From Minisyncoccota bacterium (GTDB taxonomy: Bacteria > Patescibacteriota > Minisyncoccia > Phycocordibacterales > UBA9973): a stretch of 64,000 bases of DNA. The position numbers and the translations under genes were made by a program. Each line of letters begins with the position of its first letter. Position 1 is the stretch's first letter. This document shows, piece by piece, positions 1,740 to 54,945 of this stretch. The notes under the pieces are model-generated. The model had not been told where the DNA came from. It did no database searches and was given only the letters and a program-made list of their open reading frames with translations. The stretch covers positions 279,266-343,265 of the forward strand of contig JBBAAI010000001.1 in assembly GCA_041658325.1 (NCBI GenBank), given 5' to 3'.

Positions 1740-4700
1740 ATGCAAGTAGATACAAAGCGTCCAAAGAAGTATTTTTCTAGATACAAAAAACCTTTAGTAG
1801 AATTTCCTAATTTGATTGAAGCTCAAGTAAAGAGTTTCAAATGGTTGGTAGAGACCGGGATCGGGGAAGTCTTTAAAGAATTTTCTCCGATTATTGATTA
1901 TTCTGGAAAAAAATTCCAATTAGAATTTACTTCTTTTTCTCTAGGTGAATCTAAAATTGACGAAAACAATTCAAAAATAAATAAACTTTCCTACCAAGGA
2001 TCTTTGAAGGCGCGGGTAAAATTAACTAACAAAATTTTAGGTACCGTTAAAGAACAAGAAATTTTTATGTCAGAGCTTCCTCTGATGACTCCGCATGGAA
2101 CATTTATTATTAATGGAGTAGAACGTGTCATCGTACCCCAACTTGCGCGATCTTTTGGAGTTTTCTTTACAGAGTCAGAAAGCAAGGGTACTAGATATTT
2201 TGGTGCAAAAATTATTCCAGCTCGTGGTGTCTGGATTGAAATAGAATCTGAATCTGATGGGGGAATTTATATCAGAATAGACAAAAAAAGAAAATTTCCC
2301 GCAACAGCATTGTTGCGTGCTATGGGTTATGAGACGAATGAGATGATTCTAAAGGCATTCTCACAAAATCCGACCGCAGAAGAAACTATCAAAGCTTCTT
2401 TAGCAAAAGACGGAATAAAAAGCTTAAATGAAGCATATATTGAAATTTATAAACGTCTTCGAGATGGTGATATGGCGACTGCTGACAACGCAAAGGAGTT
2501 TATTAATTCTTTATTTACCGCAGAACGTTATGACCTTTCTCCTGTTGGACGATTTAGATTTAATCAACGTTTTGATAAATCAATGGAAGAAGATGAAATG
2601 GCTCGTAGGATAATTTCTAAAGAAGATTTAGTAACTGTGATTTCTCATATTATCGTTTTGAACAATACTCCGTTAGCCAAAGCAGATGATATAGACCACC
2701 TGGGTCAAAGACGTGTGCGTTTTGTTGGAGAAATCCTTCAGCAAAAAGTGCGTACTGGTATGATGCAAATCAAAAGAAACATTCAAGATAGAATGTCTAT
2801 CATTGATGTTGATACAGCTATGCCTATCCAAATCATCAATCAACGTCCACTACAAGCTCGCATTAAAGAATTTTTTACGACTAACCAGCTTTCTCAATTT
2901 ATGGCACAGGAAAATGTGCTTTGTGAAATAGAACATTTGCGCACTCTTTCAGCGCTTGGGCCAGGAGGTCTTACTCGTGAGCGCGCAGGGCTAGAAGTGC
3001 GTGACGTGCACCCTTCTCATTACGGAAGAGTTTGTCCGATTCACACCCCAGAAGGTCCGAACATTGGGCTTATTTTGCATCTTTCAACTTACGCAAAAAT
3101 AAATGATTTCGGAATTATTGAAACTCCTTATGTAAAAGTAAAAAATGGCAAAATTACCAGTGAAATGGTTTATTTAAATGCGCTTGAAGAAGAAAAATAT
3201 AACATTGCACATGCCGGAACTCCTTACGATGAAAACGGAAAAATAACTGAGGAAAAAGTAGAAGCGAGAATTAAGACAGAACCCGGAACAGTTTCTCGCG
3301 ATCAGATTGATTTTATTGATGTAGCTCCCAATCAAGCCTTTTCTATTGCTACCTCAATGATTCCATTTTTGGAACACAATAATGCAAATCGTGCTTTGAT
3401 GGGAAGTAATATGCAGAAACAAGCTGTGCCTTGTGTGCTTCCAGAAATGCCACTCGTTGCAACTGGTGTTGAAAAATTAGCCTCACGGAATTTAGGTAGA
3501 TTGGTTATTTCACAAGAAGAAGGTGTCGTGTCTTATCTAGACGCAAAAAAAATAATTGTTAAAGGAAAGAAAGAAGTAACTTATAATTTGGTTAATTTTT
3601 TAAGAAACAATAATTTCGCTGTTTTTCACCAACGTCCATTGGTAAATATTGGGGATAAAGTAAAAAAAGGTGATGTCTTAGCAGATACTAGTAGTACGGT
3701 GGATGGACAGATTTCAATAGGACAAAATATTTTTGTTGCGTTTTTGTCTTGGTCTGGTTCTACTTACGAAGATGCGATTATAATTTCTGAACGTCTTGTT
3801 AAAAAAAGTAAATTTACTTCAGTTTATGTTGAAGAATTTACTTGCGTGGTTCGTGATACTAAACTTGGGCCTGAAATCACAACTCGAGATATTCCAAATG
3901 TCGGGGAACTCAAATTAAAAGACTTAGATGAAGATGGTATTGTTCGTATTGGAGCAGAAGTAAGAGAGAATGATATTCTAGTTGGGAAAATTACTCCAAA
4001 AGGAGAGACAGAACTTACTCCAGAAGAAAGGCTTCTCCGCTCAATCTTCGCTGAAAAAGCACGTGATGTAAAAGACACTTCTCTTCGTATGGAGCATGGT
4101 AAACGTGGACGTATTATTAATGTAAAGATTTTTTCACGTGACCTAGGACATACTCTTGAGGCTGGAATTATTAAAAAAATTGTTATTGAAGTTGCACAGA
4201 TCAGAAATATTTCAGTTGGAGACAAACTTTCAGGAAGACATGGAAACAAAGGAGTTATCTCAACAATTCTTCCAGAAGAAGATATGCCTTACACCGCTGA
4301 TGGTACGCCAATAGACATTATTCTTTCACCGCTTGGTGTTCCTTCTCGTATGAACCTAGGACAAATTTTAGAAATTCATTTAGGTATGGCCGCAAATAGC
4401 CTTGGTTATCAAGCTATCGTTCCGCCATTCTTGGGAGCTAGGCATGAAGAAATAAAAGAAGAGCTAGTTAAAGCAGGACTTCCAGAAAATGGTAAGTTAA
4501 AACTTTTTGATGGACGCACTGGAGAACCGTTTCAACAAGATATTGCTGTTGGTTATATGTACATGCTCAAACTTCACCACATGGTGGAAGACAAGATTCA
4601 CATGCGTTCGATTGGACCTTATTCTCTCATTACCCAACAACCTCTTGGTGGAAAAGCTCAAGGTGGAGGACAAAGATTTGGAGAAATGGAAGTGTGGGCT

Positions 4701-38854: not shown

Positions 38855-40942
38855 ATGAAAAAGATAAATAATATTGTTTTTGGTTTATTGGTCGCAACGT
38901 TGTTCGCTGGTGTTACTCCAGGTGTAGTTTTCGCAGCTGATAATGAAAGTATTTCATTAGCAGGAGTTGACGCTCGCACGATTGTAACAAACGGAACGAC
39001 GAGTTATGTTTCTAATTTTAATAATACTAATGTTTCAACATTAGATTTTAGTCTTATTCCTCCCGCTTTATCTGCGACAGCTTCGCTTGTTGGTGATGGT
39101 GCTTATGGTCTTTCTTTTGCTAGCGGTAATCTTTTTATAGCAGCTGGAAAATATGATTCAGCTTCCACTTATGGTGGGTTGCAAGTACTTGGCACTTCTG
39201 CTATTTATGGAAAAACTGATACCTATACATACAGTAAGGTTTTCGCTGTAAGCGGTGGATCAGCTTTCTCTGCCTTTCTTGATGGCTCATATATTCCTTA
39301 TCTTGAAGCAGTTTCGTACGATGGTGCTTCTACCATTACTCCTGTTTCTGATGTTGCATTAGATACAACATCAGTTAATGATATTACTGCACTTACTATT
39401 TCTGGAAGTAATGCATATGTTGGGATACAGGATAGTTCAAATGCCGGTTATGTTAAGGTTGTAGATACTTCTACAATGACTTCAACTGGAACATACACGA
39501 CCACTGACACCATAACTTCTGTAACAGTAAGCGGAAGCAATCTATATGTAGGACACGGAAACAAGGTTGATGTTGTAGATACTTCTGGATTAAGTCTTTC
39601 GTCTACTATAGAGACAGGGGCAACAGTCAATGGTTTAGCAACTGATGGAACCTATCTCTATGTGGCAAATGCAAATGGACTTAGAGTTTACACTCTTTCA
39701 GGTTCATTCGTAGGTGAACGTAATACTACAATGAGTGCCACCGCAGTTTCTGTCGATGGTGGTTTTATTTATGTTGCAACCAGTAACGGAACAAATAGTG
39801 AAGTATTTAAAATTAAAATGGTAGTTATCACTTTGACTGGAGCTAATCCACAAACTATAGAATTTGGTGCTGGCTATACAGAATTAGGTGCAACAGTTAG
39901 CGATGGTTCAACTCCTGTAATTACTTCAGACTTTGTTGACGCAATTGGTTCTTATACTGTTACTTATACTGCAGTTGATGCTTCAAGTAATCCCGGTTTT
40001 CAAGTTACAAGAACAGTAAATGTTTCTGACACTACCGCCCCAACAATTACTCTTTTGGGAGCTAATCCACAAAATATTCAGCAAGGTTCTGGTTATACAG
40101 AGTTGGGTGCAACTACGAACGATGGTTCTTCTGTGCAAATAAACACTTCTGCTTTTGTTGACGCAGTTGGTTCTTATGTCATTACTTATGATTCAGTTGA
40201 TGCTTCAGGAAATCATGCAACCCAAGTTGAAAGAAGGGTAAATGTTACTGGCCCAGTAGGCGGCGGTGGAGGCGGTAGCGGTGGTGGCGGATCCTCTGGA
40301 GACACCACTCCTCCCACAGACACTTCTATCTCTATCAGTGCAGGAGCAACTTCCACAGCTACACTAGCCGTTTCTCTAACTCTCGGAGCTACTGGTGCTA
40401 CTCAAATGATCATCTCAAACGATGCAGGATTTGCTGGAGCATCTTGGGAAACATATGCGACAAGTAGAGCTTGGACACTTACTTCTGGAGATGGATTGAA
40501 GACAGTTTATGCAAAGTTCAAAGATGCTGCTGGTAACATATCTGCTGCTATTTCAGATACTATTACTGTTTCTGGAAGTGGGACGACAACAACCACTACT
40601 GGATCTATTCCTGGATGTACTGGAACCACTGGTTACAGTATCACTACTGGCCAATCTTGTGCGGGAAATACAGGAGGGCAAGTTTTGGGCGCTGAAAAAT
40701 TTATTTTCACACTTTTCCTAAAACAAACAACTCCTCCACCATATCCAAAACTTGTTGCCTATGTTAATGAGGTAAAAGAACTTCAAAAATTCTTGAATGC
40801 TGCTCCATATAATAGTGGTTTAGTAGTTGATGGCAAATTTGGTCCACTGACTAAGGCTGCAGTTATTAAATTCCAATTGGCAAATGGATTAGTAGGGGAT
40901 GGTAAAGTTGGTCCTCTTACCCGAGCAGTGTTGAACAAATAA
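38855..40942 (+). CDS. Secreted surface protein: beta-propeller-like repeats, two Ig-like (DUF5011-type) domains, Gly-rich linker, C-terminal PG_binding_1 domain
   Basis: A signal peptide is predicted. Repeated SGSN(L/A)YVG...VVDTS blocks are LVIVD-like. The Ig-like domains are tandem, each LTGANPQ.I..G.GYTELGAT..DGS....TS.FVDA(I/V)GSY.(V/I)TY..VDASSN. The Gly-rich linker is GGGGGSGGGGSSG. The C-terminal PGB1 domain is VVDGKFGPLTKAAVIKFQLANGLVGDGKVGPLT. Confidence 0.65.
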   Translation: MKKINNIVFGLLVATLFAGVTPGVVFAADNESISLAGVDARTIVTNGTTSYVSNFNNTNVSTLDFSLIPPALSATASLVGDGAYGLSFASGNLFIAAGKYDSASTYGGLQVLGTSAIYGKTDTYTYSKVFAVSGGSAFSAFLDGSYIPYLEAVSYDGASTITPVSDVALDTTSVNDITALTISGSNAYVGIQDSSNAGYVKVVDTSTMTSTGTYTTTDTITSVTVSGSNLYVGHGNKVDVVDTSGLSLSSTIETGATVNGLATDGTYLYVANANGLRVYTLSGSFVGERNTTMSATAVSVDGGFIYVATSNGTNSEVFKIKMVVITLTGANPQTIEFGAGYTELGATVSDGSTPVITSDFVDAIGSYTVTYTAVDASSNPGFQVTRTVNVSDTTAPTITLLGANPQNIQQGSGYTELGATTNDGSSVQINTSAFVDAVGSYVITYDSVDASGNHATQVERRVNVTGPVGGGGGGSGGGGSSGDTTPPTDTSISISAGATSTATLAVSLTLGATGATQMIISNDAGFAGASWETYATSRAWTLTSGDGLKTVYAKFKDAAGNISAAISDTITVSGSGTTTTTTGSIPGCTGTTGYSITTGQSCAGNTGGQVLGAEKFIFTLFLKQTTPPPYPKLVAYVNEVKELQKFLNAAPYNSGLVVDGKFGPLTKAAVIKFQLANGLVGDGKVGPLTRAVLNK

Positions 40943-46221: not shown

Positions 46222-48159
46222 ATGTACGTAGTAAAAAGATCTCATCATAATCCAATCCTTGCCCCATATAGAGACCATTATTGGGAGGCTTTTGCTACGT
46301 TCAATATGAGTGTCGTAAAAAAAGGTAAAACTTTTTATGGTGTATATCGCGCTATTTCGGCAGAAGATAGATTACTTACTCCACATCAAATTTCTACTAT
46401 AGGTATAGGAAAAAGTGAGAACACTGTGCACTTTGAAGATTGTGTACCTTTTATTGTACCTGAAGAAGAATGGGAAAAATACGGTTGTGAAGATCCACGC
46501 ATTACTTTCTTTGAAGGAAATTATTATACATTTTATACAGCTCTTTCAAAATATCCTTTTGAAGCCAGCGGAATCAAAGTTGCTGTAGCGATTTCAAAAG
46601 ATTTAAAAAAAATCGATGAAAGACATTTGATAACACCTTTTAATGCGAAAGCAATGACTCTTTTCCCGGAACGCATCAATGGAAAGATCACGGTTATTGT
46701 TACGGTAAATACAGATATGCCTCCCTCGAAAATTGCGATAGCACAAGTAGATAAAATAGAAGATTTGTGGAATCAAAAGTTTTGGGAAAAATGGTATTTG
46801 AACATAGATAAATATGCAGTTGATTTTAGAAGAGTACCGTCTGACCATACAGAGATTGGAGCTTCGCCAATTAAAACTGCTCACGGTTGGTTGCTCTTGT
46901 ATTCACATATTCAAAATTATTTTCCTGGGGGAGACGGCTCTGATCGTATCTTTGGAATTGAAGCGGTACTTCTCGATATTAATAATCCTCTTAAAATTTT
47001 AGGACGGACGCGTAGTCCTCTTTTAGTCCCTAGAGAATCATATGAACTGTTAGGGCATGTTTCTGATATAGTTTTTCCCTCGGGCGCAATTTTAGAAAAA
47101 GATACACTTTATATTTATTATGGGGCAGCAGATACAACGACTTGTATGGCTCATGTAAATTTGACTGATCTTTTGGGAACAATTCGTCCAGAAACTTCTC
47201 ACAAATGGCGTTTTTGTCGTTCTTCTAAAAACCCAATTATCACACCAGAAAAAACACATTCATGGGAATCTAAAGCTACGTTTAATCCAGCTGCTTTAAG
47301 AATCCGTGGGATAACCCATTTATTATATCGAGCGCTTTCAGAAGATAATACTTCCTCTATTGGTTATGCTAAAAGTAAAGATGGTATTACTTTCTACGAA
47401 AGATCTGAGCAACCCATTTATATTCCAAGAGAAGATTTTGAATTAAAAAAAGTTGCAGGTGGTAATTCTGGTTGCGAGGATCCTAGATTAACGAAAATAG
47501 GGAAAATTATTTATATGTGCTACACAGCCTTTGATGGCATTGGTCCGCCACGTGTTGCTGTTACTTCTATCACAGAGAAAAATTTTCTTCTTAAAAATTG
47601 GCAATGGGAAAAACCTACCATAATAACACCTGCCGGTTTTGATGATAAAGATACTTGTATTTTTCCTGAAAAAACAAATGGTAAATATTTTATTTTGCAC
47701 CGAGTGGGAGATGAAATGTGTGGAGATTATCTTAAGGCACTTAATTTTAAAACTCAAATAGTTAAAAAATGTACCAGAATCATAGGACCAAGAAAAAACA
47801 GTTGGGACAGTTTAAGAGTTGGAATATCTGCTCCACCAATAAAAACAAAATATGGATGGCTGCTTCTTTATCATGGTATTTCAAAAAGCCATCATACCTA
47901 TCGTATCGGAGCTCTTTTACTTGACCTTAAAGATCCAGCTATAATTTTGGCGCGTTCATCTGATCCTATCTTTGAGCCAGAAGAATTATATGAAAAGGTT
48001 GGTATAGTTAATAACGTTGTTTTCCCGTGCGGGATGGTAGAGAAAGATGGTTTGCTTTATATATATTATGGTGGGGCGGATACAGTTGTCGGAGTAGCCA
48101 CTATGGATCTTAAAATTCTTTTAAGAGCTCTCATGAGGGATATAAAGAAAAAAAGGTAA
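46222..48159 (+). CDS. Tandem double GH130-like (DUF377) domain protein
   Basis: Two full copies of the NPI(L/I).P...W(E/S)..ATFN...YRA(I/L)S...IG(I/Y)(G/A)KS.DG..F block are present. Each has HGWLLLY, YYG(A/G)AD and C-terminal beta-propeller blades. Confidence 0.7.
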   Translation: MYVVKRSHHNPILAPYRDHYWEAFATFNMSVVKKGKTFYGVYRAISAEDRLLTPHQISTIGIGKSENTVHFEDCVPFIVPEEEWEKYGCEDPRITFFEGNYYTFYTALSKYPFEASGIKVAVAISKDLKKIDERHLITPFNAKAMTLFPERINGKITVIVTVNTDMPPSKIAIAQVDKIEDLWNQKFWEKWYLNIDKYAVDFRRVPSDHTEIGASPIKTAHGWLLLYSHIQNYFPGGDGSDRIFGIEAVLLDINNPLKILGRTRSPLLVPRESYELLGHVSDIVFPSGAILEKDTLYIYYGAADTTTCMAHVNLTDLLGTIRPETSHKWRFCRSSKNPIITPEKTHSWESKATFNPAALRIRGITHLLYRALSEDNTSSIGYAKSKDGITFYERSEQPIYIPREDFELKKVAGGNSGCEDPRLTKIGKIIYMCYTAFDGIGPPRVAVTSITEKNFLLKNWQWEKPTIITPAGFDDKDTCIFPEKTNGKYFILHRVGDEMCGDYLKALNFKTQIVKKCTRIIGPRKNSWDSLRVGISAPPIKTKYGWLLLYHGISKSHHTYRIGALLLDLKDPAIILARSSDPIFEPEELYEKVGIVNNVVFPCGMVEKDGLLYIYYGGADTVVGVATMDLKILLRALMRDIKKKR

Positions 48160-48207
48160 GAGTTATTTTGGGTATCATCGTTTTATGATATAATCTCTCT
48201 ATATAGT

Positions 48208-49782
48208 ATGAAAAAAAACGACATAGAGAAAGTGATACTAATAGTTTTGGACGGTTTTGGTTTAGCTCCTAGGGGTCCAGGAAATCCTGTAACGGCAAAA
48301 AACATGCCCTTTTTTGATAGTTTAATTTCGACCTATAAATCTTATAGCTTGGTTGCGGCAGGACTCGTGGTAGGGCTTGAGTGGGGGACTTATGGCAATA
48401 GTGAAGTCGGACACGGGGCCCTTGGTACAGGAAGGGTGGTGGTGCAGAGCTTAGCTAGAATTAACTCTGAAATAAAAGATAGAAAATTTTTCAAAAATGA
48501 AGCTTTTTTAAAAATATTAGAGCATGCAAAAACGAATCATTCTAAAATTCACCTTATTGGTTGTGTGAGTCCTGGTGGGCTACATTCGCACGAAGGTCAT
48601 CTTGTCGGACTTTTGAATTTTTTTGCGGAAAATGATTTTTCTTCAGTCTATGTTCACATGATAACCGACGGAGAAGATAGTGTTCCTGAAGAAGGAATAA
48701 AAAGTCTGGAGAGAATAAACGAAGCACTTGTAAAAGCAAAAGCAAAAATTGTTTCTATCGGTGGTCGCGATTATACAATGGATCGTGTAAAAAACTGGCT
48801 TTTAATCAAAAAAGCTTGGGATGTCATGGTGCACGCGAATGGAGAAAAATATAAAATCCCATCAGATTATTTAAAAAAATCCTACAAAGAGGGGATATTT
48901 GATCCTGATATTGTTCCAGCTTCTTTAGTAGACGATAAGGGACAAAGTATTAAAATAGAAGATGGTGATGGAATTATTTTTTTTAATTTTAGGAATGATC
49001 GAATGAAACAAATAGTAGCACCTTTTGTTTTTGAAGATTTCAAAGATTTTGAAAGGGGTCATATTTTAAAAAATTTAATGGTTGCTACAATGACCAACTA
49101 CGATGACAGTTTTAAAGTATTGGTCGCTTATCCTCCCGACATTCCTGTAAATACTCTGGGAGAAGTTATAAGTAAAAATAAAATGAAACAGCTTCGTTTT
49201 GCAGAGGGTGAAAAAGAAGCTCACGTTACAAACTTTTTTAATGGAGGGAAGCTCGATCCTTATTCCGGAGAAGAAAGAATAATCGCTCGTTCTCGAGCCC
49301 TCTTAGGAAAAGGATATTTAGAACACCCAGAGATGTCTGCTCAAAAAATAACAGAAAATATTTTAAGTAATATTGATAAGCTGTATAGTTTAATGGTTGT
49401 GAATTTTGCTAATAGTGATATGGTGGCGCATTCGGGAGATATTCCTGCTGTAGAAAAAGCTTTAAGTGTTGTGGATAAATCATTAGAAAAAATAATAAAA
49501 GCAGCTGATTTGTCTAAAATGGCGATTATTATAACAGCTGATCATGGCAACGTAGAAGAGATGGTGGACCCAGCTACCAATACTCCAGATACTCAACATT
49601 CAACAGTGAATGTTCCCATTATATTTATAAATGAAAAATTCAAAGATCCAAGTGATAAAAATTTGGATAATTTGTATCAACAAAACCCAGTAGGATCGCT
49701 TATTGACGTAGCCCCAACAATTTTAGGTATTTTGGGCATTGATAAACCTAAAGAAATGTCTGGGACTAAGATTATAGATTGA
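48208..49782 (+). CDS. gpmI: 2,3-bisphosphoglycerate-independent phosphoglycerate mutase
   Basis: The iPGM N-terminus LIVLDGFGLAP is present. The catalytic Ser region and metal-binding residues are ADHGN and MVAHSGD. Confidence 0.9.
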   Translation: MKKNDIEKVILIVLDGFGLAPRGPGNPVTAKNMPFFDSLISTYKSYSLVAAGLVVGLEWGTYGNSEVGHGALGTGRVVVQSLARINSEIKDRKFFKNEAFLKILEHAKTNHSKIHLIGCVSPGGLHSHEGHLVGLLNFFAENDFSSVYVHMITDGEDSVPEEGIKSLERINEALVKAKAKIVSIGGRDYTMDRVKNWLLIKKAWDVMVHANGEKYKIPSDYLKKSYKEGIFDPDIVPASLVDDKGQSIKIEDGDGIIFFNFRNDRMKQIVAPFVFEDFKDFERGHILKNLMVATMTNYDDSFKVLVAYPPDIPVNTLGEVISKNKMKQLRFAEGEKEAHVTNFFNGGKLDPYSGEERIIARSRALLGKGYLEHPEMSAQKITENILSNIDKLYSLMVVNFANSDMVAHSGDIPAVEKALSVVDKSLEKIIKAADLSKMAIIITADHGNVEEMVDPATNTPDTQHSTVNVPIIFINEKFKDPSDKNLDNLYQQNPVGSLIDVAPTILGILGIDKPKEMSGTKIID

Positions 49783-49881
49783 ATAATTTAATATAAAGCT
49801 TGTGGAAATCGTGCGGGGGGGGGGTATAATTAGCTCGTCGAGATTTTATAAATTATAGTATAACAAAACAAAAAGAAATTC

Positions 49882-51750
49882 ATGAGGAAAATATTTAAAA
49901 GTAAAATTTTAATATTAATAATCTTATTGGGGCTATCAGCTCAAATAGCTTTTGCTTATAGTATTACACCGTTTGGTATTACTGATGCTATTCCCGGGGG
50001 GATAACAATAGACGGAGCCGGGAATATATATACGGCAAACTACAATGGTGCAAATAACGTCTCTAAAATCACTCCAGCCGGTGTTTCAACTATTCTTGGC
50101 ACTACTGGTGCCGAGCCGACCGGCATAATAACAGACGGAGCCGGGAATATATATACGGCAAACTATAGCGCAAATAACGTCTCTAAAATCACTCCAGCCG
50201 GTGTTTCAACTATTCTTGGCACGACTGGTACCAATCCGTATAGTATAACAATAGACGGAGATGGGAATATATATACGGCAAACATTGGTTCAGATAATGT
50301 CACTAAGATCACCCCAGCCGGTGTTTCAACTATTCTTGGCACTACTGGTGCCGGTCCGTATGGTATAACAATAGACGGAGCTGGGAATATATATACTTCA
50401 AACTATAGCGCAAATAACGTCTCTAAAATCACTCCAGCCGGTGTTTCAACTATTCTTGGCACGACTGGTAATGGTCCATGGGGTATAACAATAGACGGAG
50501 CTGGAAATATATATACTTCAAACTATGAAGCAAACAACGTCTCTAAAATCACTCCAGCCGGTGTTTCAACTATTCTTGGCACTACTGGTGCCAATCCGCA
50601 AGATATAACAATAGACGGAGCTGGGAATATATATACTTCAAACTATAGCGCAAATAACGTCTCTAAAATCACTCCAGCCGGTGTTTCAACTATTCTTGGC
50701 ACTACTGGTACCGAGCCGCAAGAGATAACAATAGACGGAGCTGGGAATATATATACGGCAAACAGTGGCTCAAATAATGTTTCTAAAATCACTAATCCGA
50801 CAATCACCGAAGTAACTCCGGTTACAACGCCAATAGTTACTGATAGTCTATTAGACTATACTTTTAATAGCAATAGCGATGGATCAATTTCTGTAGGGGG
50901 CTCTTGTGGTTCAATCACAACAAGCGCAATCGCAGGAGATAATGCTATTACTTTTGATGCGCTTCCTGCTGGCACATATTCTAATTGTACAATAATAGTT
51001 ACCGATAGTTTTGGTCCAAGTAATACGCTTGCAGTTTCTTCTTTTGTTGTTTCTACTACCCCCACCGTCACATCTTCTCCTGCCACAAACATAACTAGAG
51101 TCGGAGCCACCTTAAATGGAGAAATCACTGCTACCGGAGGAGCCGATGCTACCGCCAGAGGTTTCCAATATGGTATGACCAACAGTTATGGCACGACAGT
51201 TACTGAATCAAGTGGTCCCTACAGTACAGGAGTCTTCACCGCTGACCTCTCTAACTTACTCACCTGTGGTCAACCCTACTATTTCCGTGCTTACGCTACC
51301 AACATTGCAGGTACGAGCTATGGAGCAGAAACTACTTTTACCACCACTACTTGTGATACCGGAGGGGGAGGAGGCGGAACAGTAACTCCACCTCCAGTAA
51401 TTCCTCCCGTAACCCCACCCGTTGTTCCTCCTGTCACTCCACCGGTTGTACCACCACCCACAACCATAAACACCATCTGTAATCTTGGAGATAATTTCAG
51501 TGCTACAACTGGTTTGCCTTGTACTTCTTATTATCAAACAAATCCAACATCAAGTTGTCCCATTACTGTTACTTTAAGGTTTGGTTATAGGGGGAATCAA
51601 GTTAAATGTTTACAAATAGGTTTAAATATTTCTGCTGATGGTATTTTTGGATTACAAACCAAAGCGGCTGTTATTAAATTTCAAAAAAGCAAGGGTTTGG
51701 TGCCAGACGGAATATTTGGTCCTAAATCACGAGCTTTGTGGCTAAAATAA
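49882..51750 (+). CDS. Secreted repeat protein: ~9 tandem 40-aa beta-propeller (NHL/SBBP-like) repeats, Pro-rich linker, C-terminal PG_binding_1 domain
   Basis: A signal peptide is predicted. The repeat ITIDGAGNIYT(A/S)NY.ANNVSKITPAGVSTILGTTG occurs ~9 times. The Pro-rich linker is PPVIPPVTPPVVPPVTPPVVPPP. The C-terminal PGB1 domain is ADGIFGLQTKAAVIKFQKSKGLVPDGIFGPKS. Confidence 0.65.
   Translation: MRKIFKSKILILIILLGLSAQIAFAYSITPFGITDAIPGGITIDGAGNIYTANYNGANNVSKITPAGVSTILGTTGAEPTGIITDGAGNIYTANYSANNVSKITPAGVSTILGTTGTNPYSITIDGDGNIYTANIGSDNVTKITPAGVSTILGTTGAGPYGITIDGAGNIYTSNYSANNVSKITPAGVSTILGTTGNGPWGITIDGAGNIYTSNYEANNVSKITPAGVSTILGTTGANPQDITIDGAGNIYTSNYSANNVSKITPAGVSTILGTTGTEPQEITIDGAGNIYTANSGSNNVSKITNPTITEVTPVTTPIVTDSLLDYTFNSNSDGSISVGGSCGSITTSAIAGDNAITFDALPAGTYSNCTIIVTDSFGPSNTLAVSSFVVSTTPTVTSSPATNITRVGATLNGEITATGGADATARGFQYGMTNSYGTTVTESSGPYSTGVFTADLSNLLTCGQPYYFRAYATNIAGTSYGAETTFTTTTCDTGGGGGGTVTPPPVIPPVTPPVVPPVTPPVVPPPTTINTICNLGDNFSATTGLPCTSYYQTNPTSSCPITVTLRFGYRGNQVKCLQIGLNISADGIFGLQTKAAVIKFQKSKGLVPDGIFGPKSRALWLK
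49990..50790 (+). repeat. Near-identical ~120-123-bp tandem DNA repeats (about 7 units) inside the 49882 gene
   Basis: The block ctctaaaatcactccagccggtgtttcaactattcttggcac recurs at ~120-bp period with only a few substitutions per unit. The repeats are in-frame coding. Confidence 0.7.
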
Positions 51751-51798
51751 AAGAGTTTACCCGTTGGGTATTTTTTGACAATCAGTTTTTTAAAAATG

Positions 51799-51807
51799 TG
51801 ATACAAT
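51799..51807 (+). promoter_or_regulatory. Extended -10 promoter element (TGaTACAAT) upstream of hpf
   Basis: This is a TGnTAnAAT-type extended -10. It would place the transcription start at about 51814-51816, the first base of the inverted repeat. Confidence 0.35.
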
Positions 51808-51814
51808 AAATATA

Positions 51815-51886
51815 TGCATCCCGTTAGAAATCTACGGGATTTGCAGAAAAGTAGATTATTAACTAATTAATTTCTAACGGGATGCA
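51815..51886 (+). promoter_or_regulatory. Perfect 17-bp inverted repeat in the hpf 5' leader that encloses the start codon
   Basis: The left arm tgcatcccgttagaaat (51815-51831) is the exact reverse complement of the right arm atttctaacgggatgca (51870-51886). The right arm contains the hpf ATG (51882-51884) and its RBS. A nested atctac...gtagat repeat lies in the loop. Confidence 0.5.
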
Positions 51887-52280
51887 AATAAATTTACAAG
51901 GGAAAAATATGGAGTTGACAGAGGCTATTAAGGATTATGCCTTGAAAAGAGTTACTAATTTGGGTAAACTGCTTTCTTCGATTGAAAAAGGAGGAGGTGA
52001 AGTTATGATTAATCTTGAAGTTGGTCAAAGTACGAAGCATCACAAATCAGGCGTTATTTTTCATTCTGATTGCTTAGTTAATATTAATGGGGAAAAGTTT
52101 TATTCAGAAAGCGACAATGAAGATTTATACGCCGCTATTGATGCGGTAAAAGATAGTCTTTTCAACGAAATAGAAAAAAACAAAAATCGTAAACAAACAC
52201 TTTTCAGACGTGGAGCATCAAGTATTAAAAAGATGTTAAAGGGACTTTCAGACCGTAACCCGTTTACTTCAAAATATTAG
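51882..52280 (+). CDS. hpf: Ribosome hibernation-promoting factor / RaiA family
   Basis: The N-terminus MQINLQGKNMELTEAIKDYALKRV aligns to the HPF consensus MNIQITGKNIEVTEAIRDYV. Confidence 0.8.
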   Translation: MQINLQGKNMELTEAIKDYALKRVTNLGKLLSSIEKGGGEVMINLEVGQSTKHHKSGVIFHSDCLVNINGEKFYSESDNEDLYAAIDAVKDSLFNEIEKNKNRKQTLFRRGASSIKKMLKGLSDRNPFTSKY

Positions 52281-53091
52281 TTTTTAATAAATCTTCGTAT
52301 TTTATTTCCTTTTTACCTTCTGGTAACACTTTTTTGATTGCAAACTCTCCATCTTCCAATATTGCGTCAGTAATAATAATTCTTTTTCCATCTTTAAAAA
52401 AGAAAGTTCTGGGCCAGTATGCATAGGCGCGAAATTTGTTGTAATTTTTTATAGCGCTGTCGTTTAAATCAATAAGTCCATCCTCTTTTTTGATTTTTTT
52501 ACAAAAAGTTGCTTCGGATTCATCCTGAGCAATTTCTTTAATTTTTCCATTAATAAAATCTGGTAAAGTTTTTGTTAGAAGTTCTCCACCAGTCTTTATT
52601 AAACGAGTCTTTAGCTCTGGTGTTTTTTCATCAGGTAATATTGTTGTTTTTTCTTTAGCAATAACGGGCCCAGAGTCCATTTTGTATGCCATTTTTTGAA
52701 TTGTCACTCCTGTCTCTGTTTCGCCATTTAGAATTACAGATTCTACTGGTGAGGCTCCTCGATATTTTGGAAGTAGAGAATAGTGAACATTAATAGAGCC
52801 TAATTTTGGTATATTTAAGAGATTCTCTGGTATTATTTTCCCGTAGGCAACAACGATAGATAAATCTGCTTGAAAATCTATGTCTAATTTTTCTGGCTGA
52901 ACGTAAGGAATATTGTTTTTTATTGCCCAAATTTTTACTGGCGGGGGAGTAATAAGCATTTTACGTCCTTGTGGTTTGTCAGGCGCAGTCACAATAAGTG
53001 ATGGTAGAAAGCCATTTTTTTTTAAAATCTCCAAAGTTTCATATGCTACATCTGGAGTACCCCAAAATATAAAGTTCAATTTTTCCTTCAT
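52264..53091 (-). CDS. fmt: Methionyl-tRNA formyltransferase
   Basis: The N-terminus is IFWGTPDVAYETLEIL. The formyltransferase core is IINVHYSLLPKYRGASPV. It follows def in the conserved order. Confidence 0.85.
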   Translation of the reverse strand: MKEKLNFIFWGTPDVAYETLEILKKNGFLPSLIVTAPDKPQGRKMLITPPPVKIWAIKNNIPYVQPEKLDIDFQADLSIVVAYGKIIPENLLNIPKLGSINVHYSLLPKYRGASPVESVILNGETETGVTIQKMAYKMDSGPVIAKEKTTILPDEKTPELKTRLIKTGGELLTKTLPDFINGKIKEIAQDESEATFCKKIKKEDGLIDLNDSAIKNYNKFRAYAYWPRTFFFKDGKRIIITDAILEDGEFAIKKVLPEGKKEIKYEDLLKTNILK

Positions 53092-53092
53092 T

Positions 53093-53632
53093 TTATTTAG
53101 GCAATTCTTCTTTTATTTCTTTTGCGTGGTCAATAAAAAGTATGCCATTTAAATGATCAGTTTCGTGTTGAAAAATTTGTGCCAGAAGTCCAGAAGCACC
53201 TCTAGTAAATTTTTTACCATTTTCATCGTAGGCCGTGATCGTTGCCTTTTTGGATCTAAAAGTCTTGCCATAAAGCCATCTTACAGAAAGACACCCTTCA
53301 GGTAACCAGTCTTTTTCTCTAGATAGTTTAGAAATTTTGGGGTTTATGAAAATTAGATCCTTAATATTTTCTTTGTCTTTTGACACATCGTCAATATTTT
53401 TTTCTCTATCTTTAGTAAAATCTTTTTCAAATATTTTTCCCGATACGACAAAAATTCGTAATGGATATCCAATTTGTGGCGCAGCGATAGCTACGCCATC
53501 ACTCTGGCTTTTTAATGCTTCAGACATTTCTTTCAAGACAGTTTTTATTTTTTTTGTTTTAATATCAGCAATATCCAATTCTGTTGCATTTTGACGCAAA
53601 ACTTTTTCTTTTTGTTGAAGAATTTTCTTCAT
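53093..53632 (-). CDS. def: Peptide deformylase
   Basis: All three PDF motifs are present: GVAIAAPQIG, EGCLSV and HETDHLNG. Confidence 0.9.
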   Translation of the reverse strand: MKKILQQKEKVLRQNATELDIADIKTKKIKTVLKEMSEALKSQSDGVAIAAPQIGYPLRIFVVSGKIFEKDFTKDREKNIDDVSKDKENIKDLIFINPKISKLSREKDWLPEGCLSVRWLYGKTFRSKKATITAYDENGKKFTRGASGLLAQIFQHETDHLNGILFIDHAKEIKEELPK

Positions 53633-53637
53633 TTCTT

Positions 53638-54945
53638 TTATTTAATTTCTTTTAAATATTCCAGAAGTTTGTTTAATTTAACAGTTTCTTGAGATCTATT
53701 AGACATATCTCGCACAATAACAGAATTATCAAGTGCTTCTTTTACTCCAAAGATTATGGCATAGGGAATAGCTAATTTTTCAGCGATGGAGAGTTGAGAT
53801 CCTATGCTATCCTTAGAAAGTGATTGAGTTATGGGAATATGTGCCTTGCGTAATATTTCGATTATATTTAAACTTTTTAGTTTAGCTTCAGATCCTAATT
53901 GAATGAAATAAATTTTTGGTTTCTTTAATATGCGGGGTGAAAGTTTTTTATACCAGGTTGATGCGATTATTCGATCTACGCCAATAGATATTCCTACTGC
54001 TGGGACATCACGCTTGTTTCCTATTTGGCGAGCTAAATAATCATAACGCCCACCACCAGCGAGAGTAAGAGGTAATCCTTCTTCGCTTCCTTTTTGTTCT
54101 ATAATTTCAAAAACAGTACGAGTATAATAAGAAAGTCCACGTACTAAATTTTTGTTTATATTATAGGAGATATTCATTTCTTCTAAATATTCCAATACTT
54201 CTTTGAAATGTTTTTTGCAGGAAGTACAAAGAAAGGAGATTGAATCTGGGGCACCCTCGTTGATTTCTCTCGTTTTTTCTTCTTTTGAATCTAAGATTCG
54301 AAGTGGGTTTGTTTTTAAGCGTTCACGGTCTACTGCTGGTAGACTACTTAGGTGTTTTTTATAATAATTTGTGAGTTCTTTCAAATATACACTCTTGCAC
54401 TCTTTGTCACCTATTGAGTTTATATCTATTGAAAGATTAGAAGCTCCAGCTTCTTCCAATATACTTATACCTGTCTTTATTACTAACGCATCCATAATGC
54501 TTTTATCATTTCCCAAGCAATCTAAATCAAATTGCCAAAATTGTCTGTATCGTCCACGTTGAGGTTTGTCGTGTCTAAAAACTGGACCATATTGATAAAA
54601 CATTACTGGTTGAGGCATTGTTTGCATTCCATGTTCTATATAAGCACGCATAAGTGGGGCAGTGTGTTCAGGCCTGAGGGCTAAATGATCTCCTCCTTTG
54701 GTTTTAAGTGTATACATTTCTTTATCTATAATGTCAGTGCCTTCTCCTATGCTTCCAGTAAAAACTCCTTCATATTCCAACATAGGTGTTTCTATCGGCT
54801 TGAAACCATAATACATTGCTACCTCTTGAGCCTTTTCGAAAAATCCTTGAAAAGAATAATATTCTTCATTTATCAAATCTCGCATTCCTTTTGGTGAAGA
54901 AATATCTGTTATCTTATTTTTATTTGTGTGTGCTGTTTTTTTCAT
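53638..54945 (-). CDS. hisS: Histidyl-tRNA synthetase
   Basis: The class IIa motifs and HisRS N-terminus GMRDLINEEYY...FKPIETPMLE are present, with a C-terminal anticodon-binding domain. Confidence 0.9.
   Translation of the reverse strand: MKKTAHTNKNKITDISSPKGMRDLINEEYYSFQGFFEKAQEVAMYYGFKPIETPMLEYEGVFTGSIGEGTDIIDKEMYTLKTKGGDHLALRPEHTAPLMRAYIEHGMQTMPQPVMFYQYGPVFRHDKPQRGRYRQFWQFDLDCLGNDKSIMDALVIKTGISILEEAGASNLSIDINSIGDKECKSVYLKELTNYYKKHLSSLPAVDRERLKTNPLRILDSKEEKTREINEGAPDSISFLCTSCKKHFKEVLEYLEEMNISYNINKNLVRGLSYYTRTVFEIIEQKGSEEGLPLTLAGGGRYDYLARQIGNKRDVPAVGISIGVDRIIASTWYKKLSPRILKKPKIYFIQLGSEAKLKSLNIIEILRKAHIPITQSLSKDSIGSQLSIAEKLAIPYAIIFGVKEALDNSVIVRDMSNRSQETVKLNKLLEYLKEIK

Follow-up and report, generated by a model that had tools for sequence, protein, structure and literature searches.

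The window analysed here is a 64,000-nucleotide (nt) stretch of the Minisyncoccota bacterium assembly GCA_041658325.1 (contig JBBAAI010000001.1, positions 279,266 to 343,265 of the forward strand), and the gene under study is a plus-strand open reading frame (ORF) of 622 amino acids (aa) that contains a tandem repeat. Taken as a whole, the evidence makes it probable that this gene encodes a wall-tethered protein bearing a homogenised seven-blade binding propeller, the copy number of which is fixed by closure of the ring. A closed seven-bladed NHL/Vgb-type propeller with four-stranded antiparallel blades is confidently predicted by structural modelling, and comparison of codons within and between genes shows that, in this lineage, the DNA of its blades has undergone homogenisation. 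Judging from its sequence, the product is strongly predicted to be a Sec-exported, non-covalently wall-tethered surface protein of Paceibacterota (Candidate Phyla Radiation (CPR)/Patescibacteria), with PG_binding_1 as its predicted anchor. NCBI lists the identical protein, encoded on a 356.7-kb contig, under the label 'MAG: peptidoglycan-binding protein [Candidatus Paceibacterota bacterium]'.

Tandem array and predicted architecture

The gene is composed of the following features (AF2, AlphaFold2; pLDDT, predicted local distance difference test; TRF, Tandem Repeats Finder).

49882–51750, + strand: ORF of 622 aa, identical to NCBI MFA5778215.1
49882–49956, + strand: putative Sec-type signal peptide (MRKIFKSKILILIILLGLSAQIAFA) without a lipobox Cys, read from the sequence, with an inferred cleavage site
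49957–50001, + strand: N-terminal 'velcro' segment (YSITPFGITDAIPGG), outside the amplified unit; AF2 strand before blade 1
50002–50793, + strand: tandem array of 120-nt blade-coding units (TRF)
50002 (123 nt), 50125, 50245, 50365, 50485 and 50605, + strand: starts of the full units
50725–50793, + strand: partial seventh unit, comprising the first 69 nt (strands A–C only)
50794–51057, + strand: Ig-like β-sandwich domain, aa ~305–392 (AF2 strands 308–391, pLDDT 76–91)
51064–51351, + strand: FN3-like β-sandwich domain, aa ~395–490 (AF2 strands 395–487, pLDDT 85–92)
51358–51468, + strand: Gly6 plus Pro-rich (PPV)n linker, predicted to be disordered (pLDDT <50 for aa 493–529)
51469–51747, + strand: C-terminal segment with four Cys, followed by PG_binding_1
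51619–51726, + strand: PG_binding_1, aa 580–615 (Pfam, 1.8e-9; score of 38.1 bits, cut-off 23)

A reading of the letters that preceded this work, referred to here as the sequence-only reading, had reported tandem repeats in this ORF, and they lie where it placed them. TRF describes the array with a period of 120, 6.6 copies, 86% matches, no indels and a score of 1130, and the repeat search recovers the 120-nt spacing across the whole array. The window contains six copies of a 38-nt unit core, every one of them within the array, and 100 shuffles yielded none. Seven DG[AD]GNIY cores are distributed across the array, with one blade of ~40 residues per unit; six units are full and the seventh is partial (69 nt). 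The first unit is longer than the others by one codon. The description of the units as near-identical, with only a few substitutions, is too strong, as pairwise DNA identity ranges from 83.3 to 92.5%, or 9–20 differences per 120 nt. Units 5 and 6 form the most similar pair (92.5%), and the longest exact stretch common to units spans about 55–60 nt. A higher-order period of 240 nt (two blades) was considered and found unconvincing (identity of 89.7% among even units, 85.5% among odd units and 86.7% for odd–even pairs). That each unit encodes a single propeller blade of ~40 residues, as had been proposed, is borne out by the Pfam propeller matches and by the strand pattern of the AF2 model.

The AF2 model of the seven-unit protein, built from a 30-sequence alignment, shows a propeller of 28 strands forming seven four-stranded blades (pLDDT 92–98). 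Closure of the ring is provided by an N-terminal strand (aa 26–33, YSITPFGI), which acts as strand D of blade 7. The velcro segment to which it belongs repeats strand D and the D–A loop in diverged form, and is kept as AYSIT.F in the homologues P0030, P0038, P0041 and P0042. Pfam assigns aa 34–295 to Vgb_lyase (PF24684; 4.8e-26; score of 91.7 bits, cut-off 50), and SBBP, SGL and NHL likewise exceed their cut-offs on the propeller. Results of a Foldseek search of the PDB give the best seven-blade superposition with virginiamycin B lyase (2z2n/2qc5; TMt 0.84, root mean square deviation (r.m.s.d.) of 2.4–2.5 Å over ~297 columns), while the top-ranked matches are the Pizza6 designs and the PknD sensor domain from M. 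tuberculosis, their natural template. The closest PDB entries by sequence are Pizza7H, Pizza6 and PknD.

Both natural relatives share part of this architecture. With Vgb (2z2n, 2qc5; PF24684), the protein has in common the seven blades, the Pfam family and the best global superposition; however, Vgb works as an enzyme in the cytoplasm, and it has differentiated blades and catalytic His residues, whereas the present protein is predicted to be secreted, has highly similar blades and contains no His. PknD, which is among the best matches by sequence and by Foldseek, is likewise an extracytoplasmic and highly symmetric NHL propeller, but it has six blades and is tethered to a membrane kinase, in contrast to the seven blades, PG_binding_1 anchor and lack of a signalling domain found here.

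Downstream of the propeller, two β-sandwich domains that were absent from the sequence-only reading precede the linker. The first, Ig-like domain has no Pfam match and is common to P0030, P0038, P0019, P0024, P0031 and others. The Pro-rich PPV part of the linker (aa 499–527; TRF period 24 at 51401–51449) and the C-terminal peptidoglycan-binding domain had both been recognized from the letters, and are present. The PG_binding_1 region forms three helices with pLDDT 84–94 in an AF2 model of a six-unit version of the protein, discussed below, and is of lower confidence in the seven-unit model. At the other end, the signal-peptide region is modelled as a helix (aa 3–17) with low pLDDT. Following Sec export, PG_binding_1 would hold the protein non-covalently on the wall, and the sandwich domains together with the Gly/Pro linker would hold the propeller off the wall, at the distal end of the molecule.

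The segment 51061–51455, which covers the FN3-like domain and the Gly6/PPV linker, is 93.9% identical in nt to positions 4001–4395 of the JGI contig Ga0265292_1000369 (L021). The surface protein encoded there has an unrelated N-terminal domain and, in place of PG_binding_1, a transmembrane, CarboxypepD_reg-like C terminus. This match suggests, at the level of sequence, a recent exchange of modules between surface proteins.

Homogenised scaffold and blade-specific loops

Each unit can be divided into a framework (codons 1–13 and 17–35) and two hot-spots (codons 14–16 and 36–40). Across the six full units, 82 of the 96 framework columns are invariant, and the framework shows a synonymous divergence (dS) of 0.14 and a nonsynonymous divergence (dN) of 0.033. 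The mean blade identity of 0.82 at the aa level ranks third among 97 homologues. The DNA was compared with that of three homologues, P0009 (L002), P0033 (L003) and P0030 (L004), the first of which is a positional orthologue flanked, as in the window, by GH130 upstream and by hpf-fmt-def downstream. Where the encoded amino acid is the same, codon identity reaches 0.895 between blades of the window gene, compared with 0.33–0.585 between genes (0.585 for the window gene with P0009, 0.42 with P0033 and 0.42 with P0030), which agrees with the earlier proposal that such uniformity of the DNA points to duplication or recombination within the gene. The same homogeneous pattern is seen in P0009 and P0033 (within-gene values of 0.81 and 0.89, respectively), each with its own codon set; P0030 shares the post-propeller domain, but its blades have diverged (0.67).

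The gene-specific nature of these codons is also seen column by column. In the comparison with P0009, 10 of 86 framework columns carry one base in five or more of the six blades here and a different base in five or more of the six P0009 blades; under the same rule, 15 of 79 columns are gene-specific with respect to P0033. The same criterion was used by Pereira & Lupas 2022 (PMC9218822) to infer independent amplification of related highly repetitive propellers. As its codons are shared among blades and differ from those of the orthologue, the propeller is 'recently amplified' or 'highly repetitive' in the sense of that study. Two routes would account for the DNA comparison: a single blade was amplified recently, or gene conversion and unequal recombination go on among the blades.

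Rings built in this way are already known. Highly repetitive propellers, their independent amplification, a leaning of blade counts towards the norm of the family and the attendant assembly caveats have been described for all major propeller lineages (PMC9218822). The main text of that paper contains no mention of NHL or of CPR bacteria, and literature searches on NHL repeats with Patescibacteria, or on Pizza6 with PknD, returned nothing relevant. The propeller resembles WRAP of Nostoc punctiforme (Npun_R6612; PMC9218822, PMC6805158) in the high internal identity of its blades, which reaches synonymous sites, and in a velcro strand that is not part of the amplified unit and that homologues conserve. 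Like the highly repetitive propellers as a group (PMC9218822), it has gene-specific nucleotides that are common to all blades and differ in close homologues, as well as a blade number biased to the family norm. Unlike WRAP, it is of NHL/Vgb type rather than WD40 or VCBS, belongs to a CPR host and is built into a secreted, peptidoglycan-anchored architecture; its blades are also less identical (about 82% aa identity, framework dS about 0.14), with the differences concentrated in two loops. The gene adds an NHL/Vgb-type CPR example to the propellers in which single blades are amplified anew on a continuous basis.

The contrast between scaffold and loops is unusually clean. Variation affects 20 of the 24 hot-spot columns and 14 of the 96 columns elsewhere, and the hot-spot dN of 0.58 is about four times the framework dS. 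According to the AF2 secondary structure, codons 14–16 correspond to the B–C loop, between strands B and C, and codons 36–40 to the D–A loop and the start of strand A. These two loops are expected on one face of the ring, as consecutive loops of a four-stranded up-down sheet lie on alternate sides. The loops of orthologues show no positional correspondence. Under either route of homogenisation, the blade loops have been kept different, by selection or by escape from conversion. We infer that the loop-bearing face is the ligand-binding surface, where selection keeps the blades different. A homogenised scaffold with two blade-specific loops on one face would constitute a natural analogue of a consensus scaffold with variable binding loops.

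As regards function, the propeller is, from its sequence, most likely a non-catalytic binding module. An adhesin or binding role is plausible by analogy with PknD, the sensor NHL propeller of which suffices on its own for adherence to endothelial cells and for uptake by them (PMC3322341), and the ligand is likely to be a surface molecule of a partner cell or of the environment. The seven-blade module also occurs in viral contexts. In P0037, it is fused to a region matching PHROG 12067, 'virion structural protein' (5e-60), and P0049 matches a 'beta-propeller repeat protein' family in PHROGs; the same search gives no match for P0006, P0028 or P0026. Phages may use the seven-blade module as a receptor-binding domain; as it is present in viral contigs and also in a virion structural protein of a phage, it may be a common currency in which CPR bacteria and their viruses recognise cell surfaces.

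Blade number and rival explanations

Blades were counted with a blade-core hidden Markov model over the 120 best homologues, which contain 133 blade runs. Seven blades are found in 103 of the 133 runs, and 14 blades in two more. The count is also seven in all 12 IMG/VR loci (L099–L110), where the module shares 47–72% aa identity; four independent viral contigs among these encode the same seven-blade 411-aa ORF. Such a family norm is expected, since a closed ring should fix the blade count. This distribution is at odds with the proposal of a hypervariable-length locus. A single variant count of the gene, six, was found, and it is possibly an artefact.

The variant comes from contig k141_447886 of the ENA assembly ERZ27247322 (L001), the gene of which (P0001), the one close relative of the window gene, encodes 582 aa, exactly one blade fewer. 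Over 21.7 kb, this contig is 100% identical to the window, with no mismatch, apart from one 120-bp gap located as follows.

50535–50709, + strand: interval holding the 120-bp indel relative to L001, bounded by a 55-nt block common to units 5 and 6 (50535–50589 and 50655–50709)

The breakpoint can be placed anywhere in this block, and the six-unit allele remains in frame, as 120 nt is a multiple of three. The difference reflects either assembly collapse or a genuine 6/7 polymorphism, as far as the two sequences can tell; the lack of single-nucleotide polymorphisms (SNPs) over 21.7 kb points to a single population, and possibly to one set of reads that was assembled twice. Either way, the warning that the repeat region is at risk of assembly collapse was well founded, given two sequences that agree over 21.7 kb save for exactly one unit. 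Scans of genome and metagenome contigs with the non-repeat half of the protein returned no close strain, the best matches being to single domains only.

A comparable pair occurs in crAss-like phage contigs from two samples (L097 4090–5787 and L098 4090–6030). Their flanks are 99.6–99.9% identical, and their propeller genes, P0006 and P0015, have seven versus nine blades, the extra 240 nt being a copy of blades 4–5 inside blade 1. The nine-blade gene reflects a true duplication or else a mis-walk during assembly, and its layout is the one that a mis-walk in a repeat graph would give. Both deviant counts, six and nine, stem from short-read assemblies, and it has been noted that assembly can miscount blades (Pereira & Lupas 2022, PMC9218822). 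One and the same sequence is represented here by two public assemblies that differ in a single repeat; blade counts in such genes need read support.

The sequence-only reading had regarded repeat-number change here as a classic mechanism of phase or antigenic variation. In such a contingency locus, slipped-strand or homologous recombination would change the number of units often and thereby vary the adhesin. Two otherwise identical assemblies that differ by exactly one unit, with no SNP in 21.7 kb, speak for it, and it could further draw on the crAss-like gene pair with seven versus nine blades, on the closure of both the seven- and the six-unit rings in AF2 and on the blade-number plasticity known for designed and truncated propellers (PMC7734218, PMC6805158). 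Yet seven dominates among homologues and viral copies, including the four independent contigs with the same ORF, and a unit that is a multiple of three allows no ON/OFF switching. The inter-unit dS of about 0.14 and the unit-specific loops oppose rapid turnover; being far from zero, this dS argues that the array is not actively expanding or contracting. Moreover, the deviant counts come from short-read assemblies, and the nine-blade case resembles a repeat-graph mis-walk. The evidence lends no support to phase variation through changes in repeat number, and a contingency locus of this kind is unlikely. Tandem-repeat number does vary in other surface proteins, such as streptococcal alpha C/Rib, staphylococcal Aap/SasG and mycoplasma Vlp. 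The present protein resembles them in being wall-associated and in having long in-frame DNA tandem repeats prone to recombination; in contrast to their open, rod-like arrays, in which any count folds and a change of count affects length alone, its ring is closed and the count is kept at seven. A different account of the six-unit sequence, tentative but to be taken seriously, is that of a genuine rare deletion allele, generated by unequal crossover between units 5 and 6 and segregating as a non-adaptive, maybe mildly deleterious variant. The breakpoint indeed falls inside a 55-nt exact block of the two most similar units, and 141-mers should resolve the array if the reads are at least 141 nt long, so that by this reasoning the junction in the k141 contig may be read-supported. 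However, the absence of SNPs over 21.7 kb suggests the same reads assembled twice, and iterative multi-k assemblers can carry forward collapsed low-k paths.

Two further explanations concern the propeller itself. A Vgb-type lyase or SGL-type lactonase that acts on an extracellular substrate would be in keeping with Vgb_lyase as the best Pfam match, with the additional SGL match and with the structural search, in which virginiamycin B lyase gave the best match with seven blades, but it is very improbable. Catalysis by Vgb relies on His residues and a metal-binding site, with His270 essential, as illustrated by PDB 2z2p, an inactive H270A mutant, and the whole 622-aa protein contains no His, so that His-dependent Vgb chemistry is excluded and a catalytic Vgb-like role is rejected. 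In addition, blades this similar leave no differentiated active-site constellation, and the nearest PDB relatives by sequence are the non-catalytic PknD sensor domain and Pizza derivatives. Variation so tightly confined on an otherwise invariant scaffold also recalls targeted mutagenesis, for example by a diversity-generating retroelement (DGR), and CPR genomes are rich in DGRs. This origin of the loop differences is barely credible, and DGR action was rejected: all four bases take part in the substitutions, without any pattern specific to adenine, the 64-kb window holds no extra template copy of the unit, no reverse transcriptase is found among the genes called within ±10 kb, and the fold differs from the C-type-lectin or Ig folds that DGRs usually target.

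In the preferred reading of a seven-blade ring, the scaffold of the blades would be homogenised by amplification or conversion, while selection would keep the B–C and D–A loops blade-specific for binding. Ring closure would constrain the count to seven, and the six-unit version would arise through crossover in the 55-nt block of units 5 and 6, either in the cell, as a rare deletion allele, or in the assembler, as a collapse, rather than by programmed variation. Several points weigh against this reading. AF2 also closes the six-unit protein, as a six-bladed ring with pLDDT 75–97 that is lower near the closure, and this model fits Pizza6 and PknD with a TMt of 0.87 and an r.m.s.d. of 2.0 Å; ring closure alone is therefore no proof that six blades are non-functional. 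Blade-number plasticity is, as cited above, on record. As to the origin of the array, amplification from one blade and conversion among older blades are inseparable with these data. The placement of both loops on the same face derives from blade topology rather than from measured geometry, and the hot-spot dN of 0.58 comes from small counts (about 19 nonsynonymous and 26 synonymous sites), from hot-spots picked from the same data as the rate comparison and from unit pairs that are not independent. Finally, ligand and adhesin role are argued by analogy.

Promoter region and neighbouring genes

The surroundings of the ORF contain three further features.

49803–49830, + strand: top σ70-like promoter match, TGGAAA-16-TATAAT (promoter scan, 10/12 matches)
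49815–49824: G10 homopolymer in the promoter spacer, adjoining a perfect TATAAT at 49825–49830
51758–51780, + strand: weak terminator-like hairpin followed by a T-run, directly past the stop codon

The G10–TATAAT site lies 57 nt 5′ of the ATG of the propeller gene, and its G10 tract is the sole G/C run of at least 8 in the 64-kb window. The tract has equal length in assembly L001, and no G10 tract was found upstream of the propeller-gene orthologues. As a candidate slipped-strand promoter switch, the tract would be a likelier basis of phase variation than the 120-bp array. One may then imagine a two-level contingency locus of a CPR episymbiont, in which slippage at G10 switches expression and crossover gives a natural 6/7-blade polymorphism with both rings closed. 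We regard this combination as doubtful; if it were true, the gene would be a natural counterpart of the plasticity of the designed Cake8/Cake9 and of WRAP, and interaction with a host or phage would be tunable through the loop-diversified face.

The GC content of 49800–51600 is 0.39–0.48, compared with 0.31–0.38 in the flanks and 35.4% for the window as a whole, and GC skew is reversed in the gene. The value for the window agrees with a CPR/Patescibacteria genome. The higher GC content of the propeller gene may come from its Thr/Gly/Pro/Ala-rich composition or from a foreign origin. The gene is flanked by GH130 upstream and by hpf-fmt-def downstream. Between it and hpf (Ribosomal_S30AE) lies a 21-nt inverted repeat (51811–51831 and 51870–51890) with 95% complementarity and a 38-nt loop, which overlaps the first in-frame ATG, at 51882. 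An Rfam search of 47000–54000 gave no match, the inverted repeat included.

A second surface protein of 695 aa is encoded by the ORF at 38855–40942, probably the first adhesin candidate of the sequence-only reading, and carries Bact_surface_Ig-like and PG_binding_1 domains according to the annotation of L001. Its C-terminal anchor is 52% identical to that of the propeller protein over 58 aa, a likeness which indicates that the anchor is used repeatedly by this genome.

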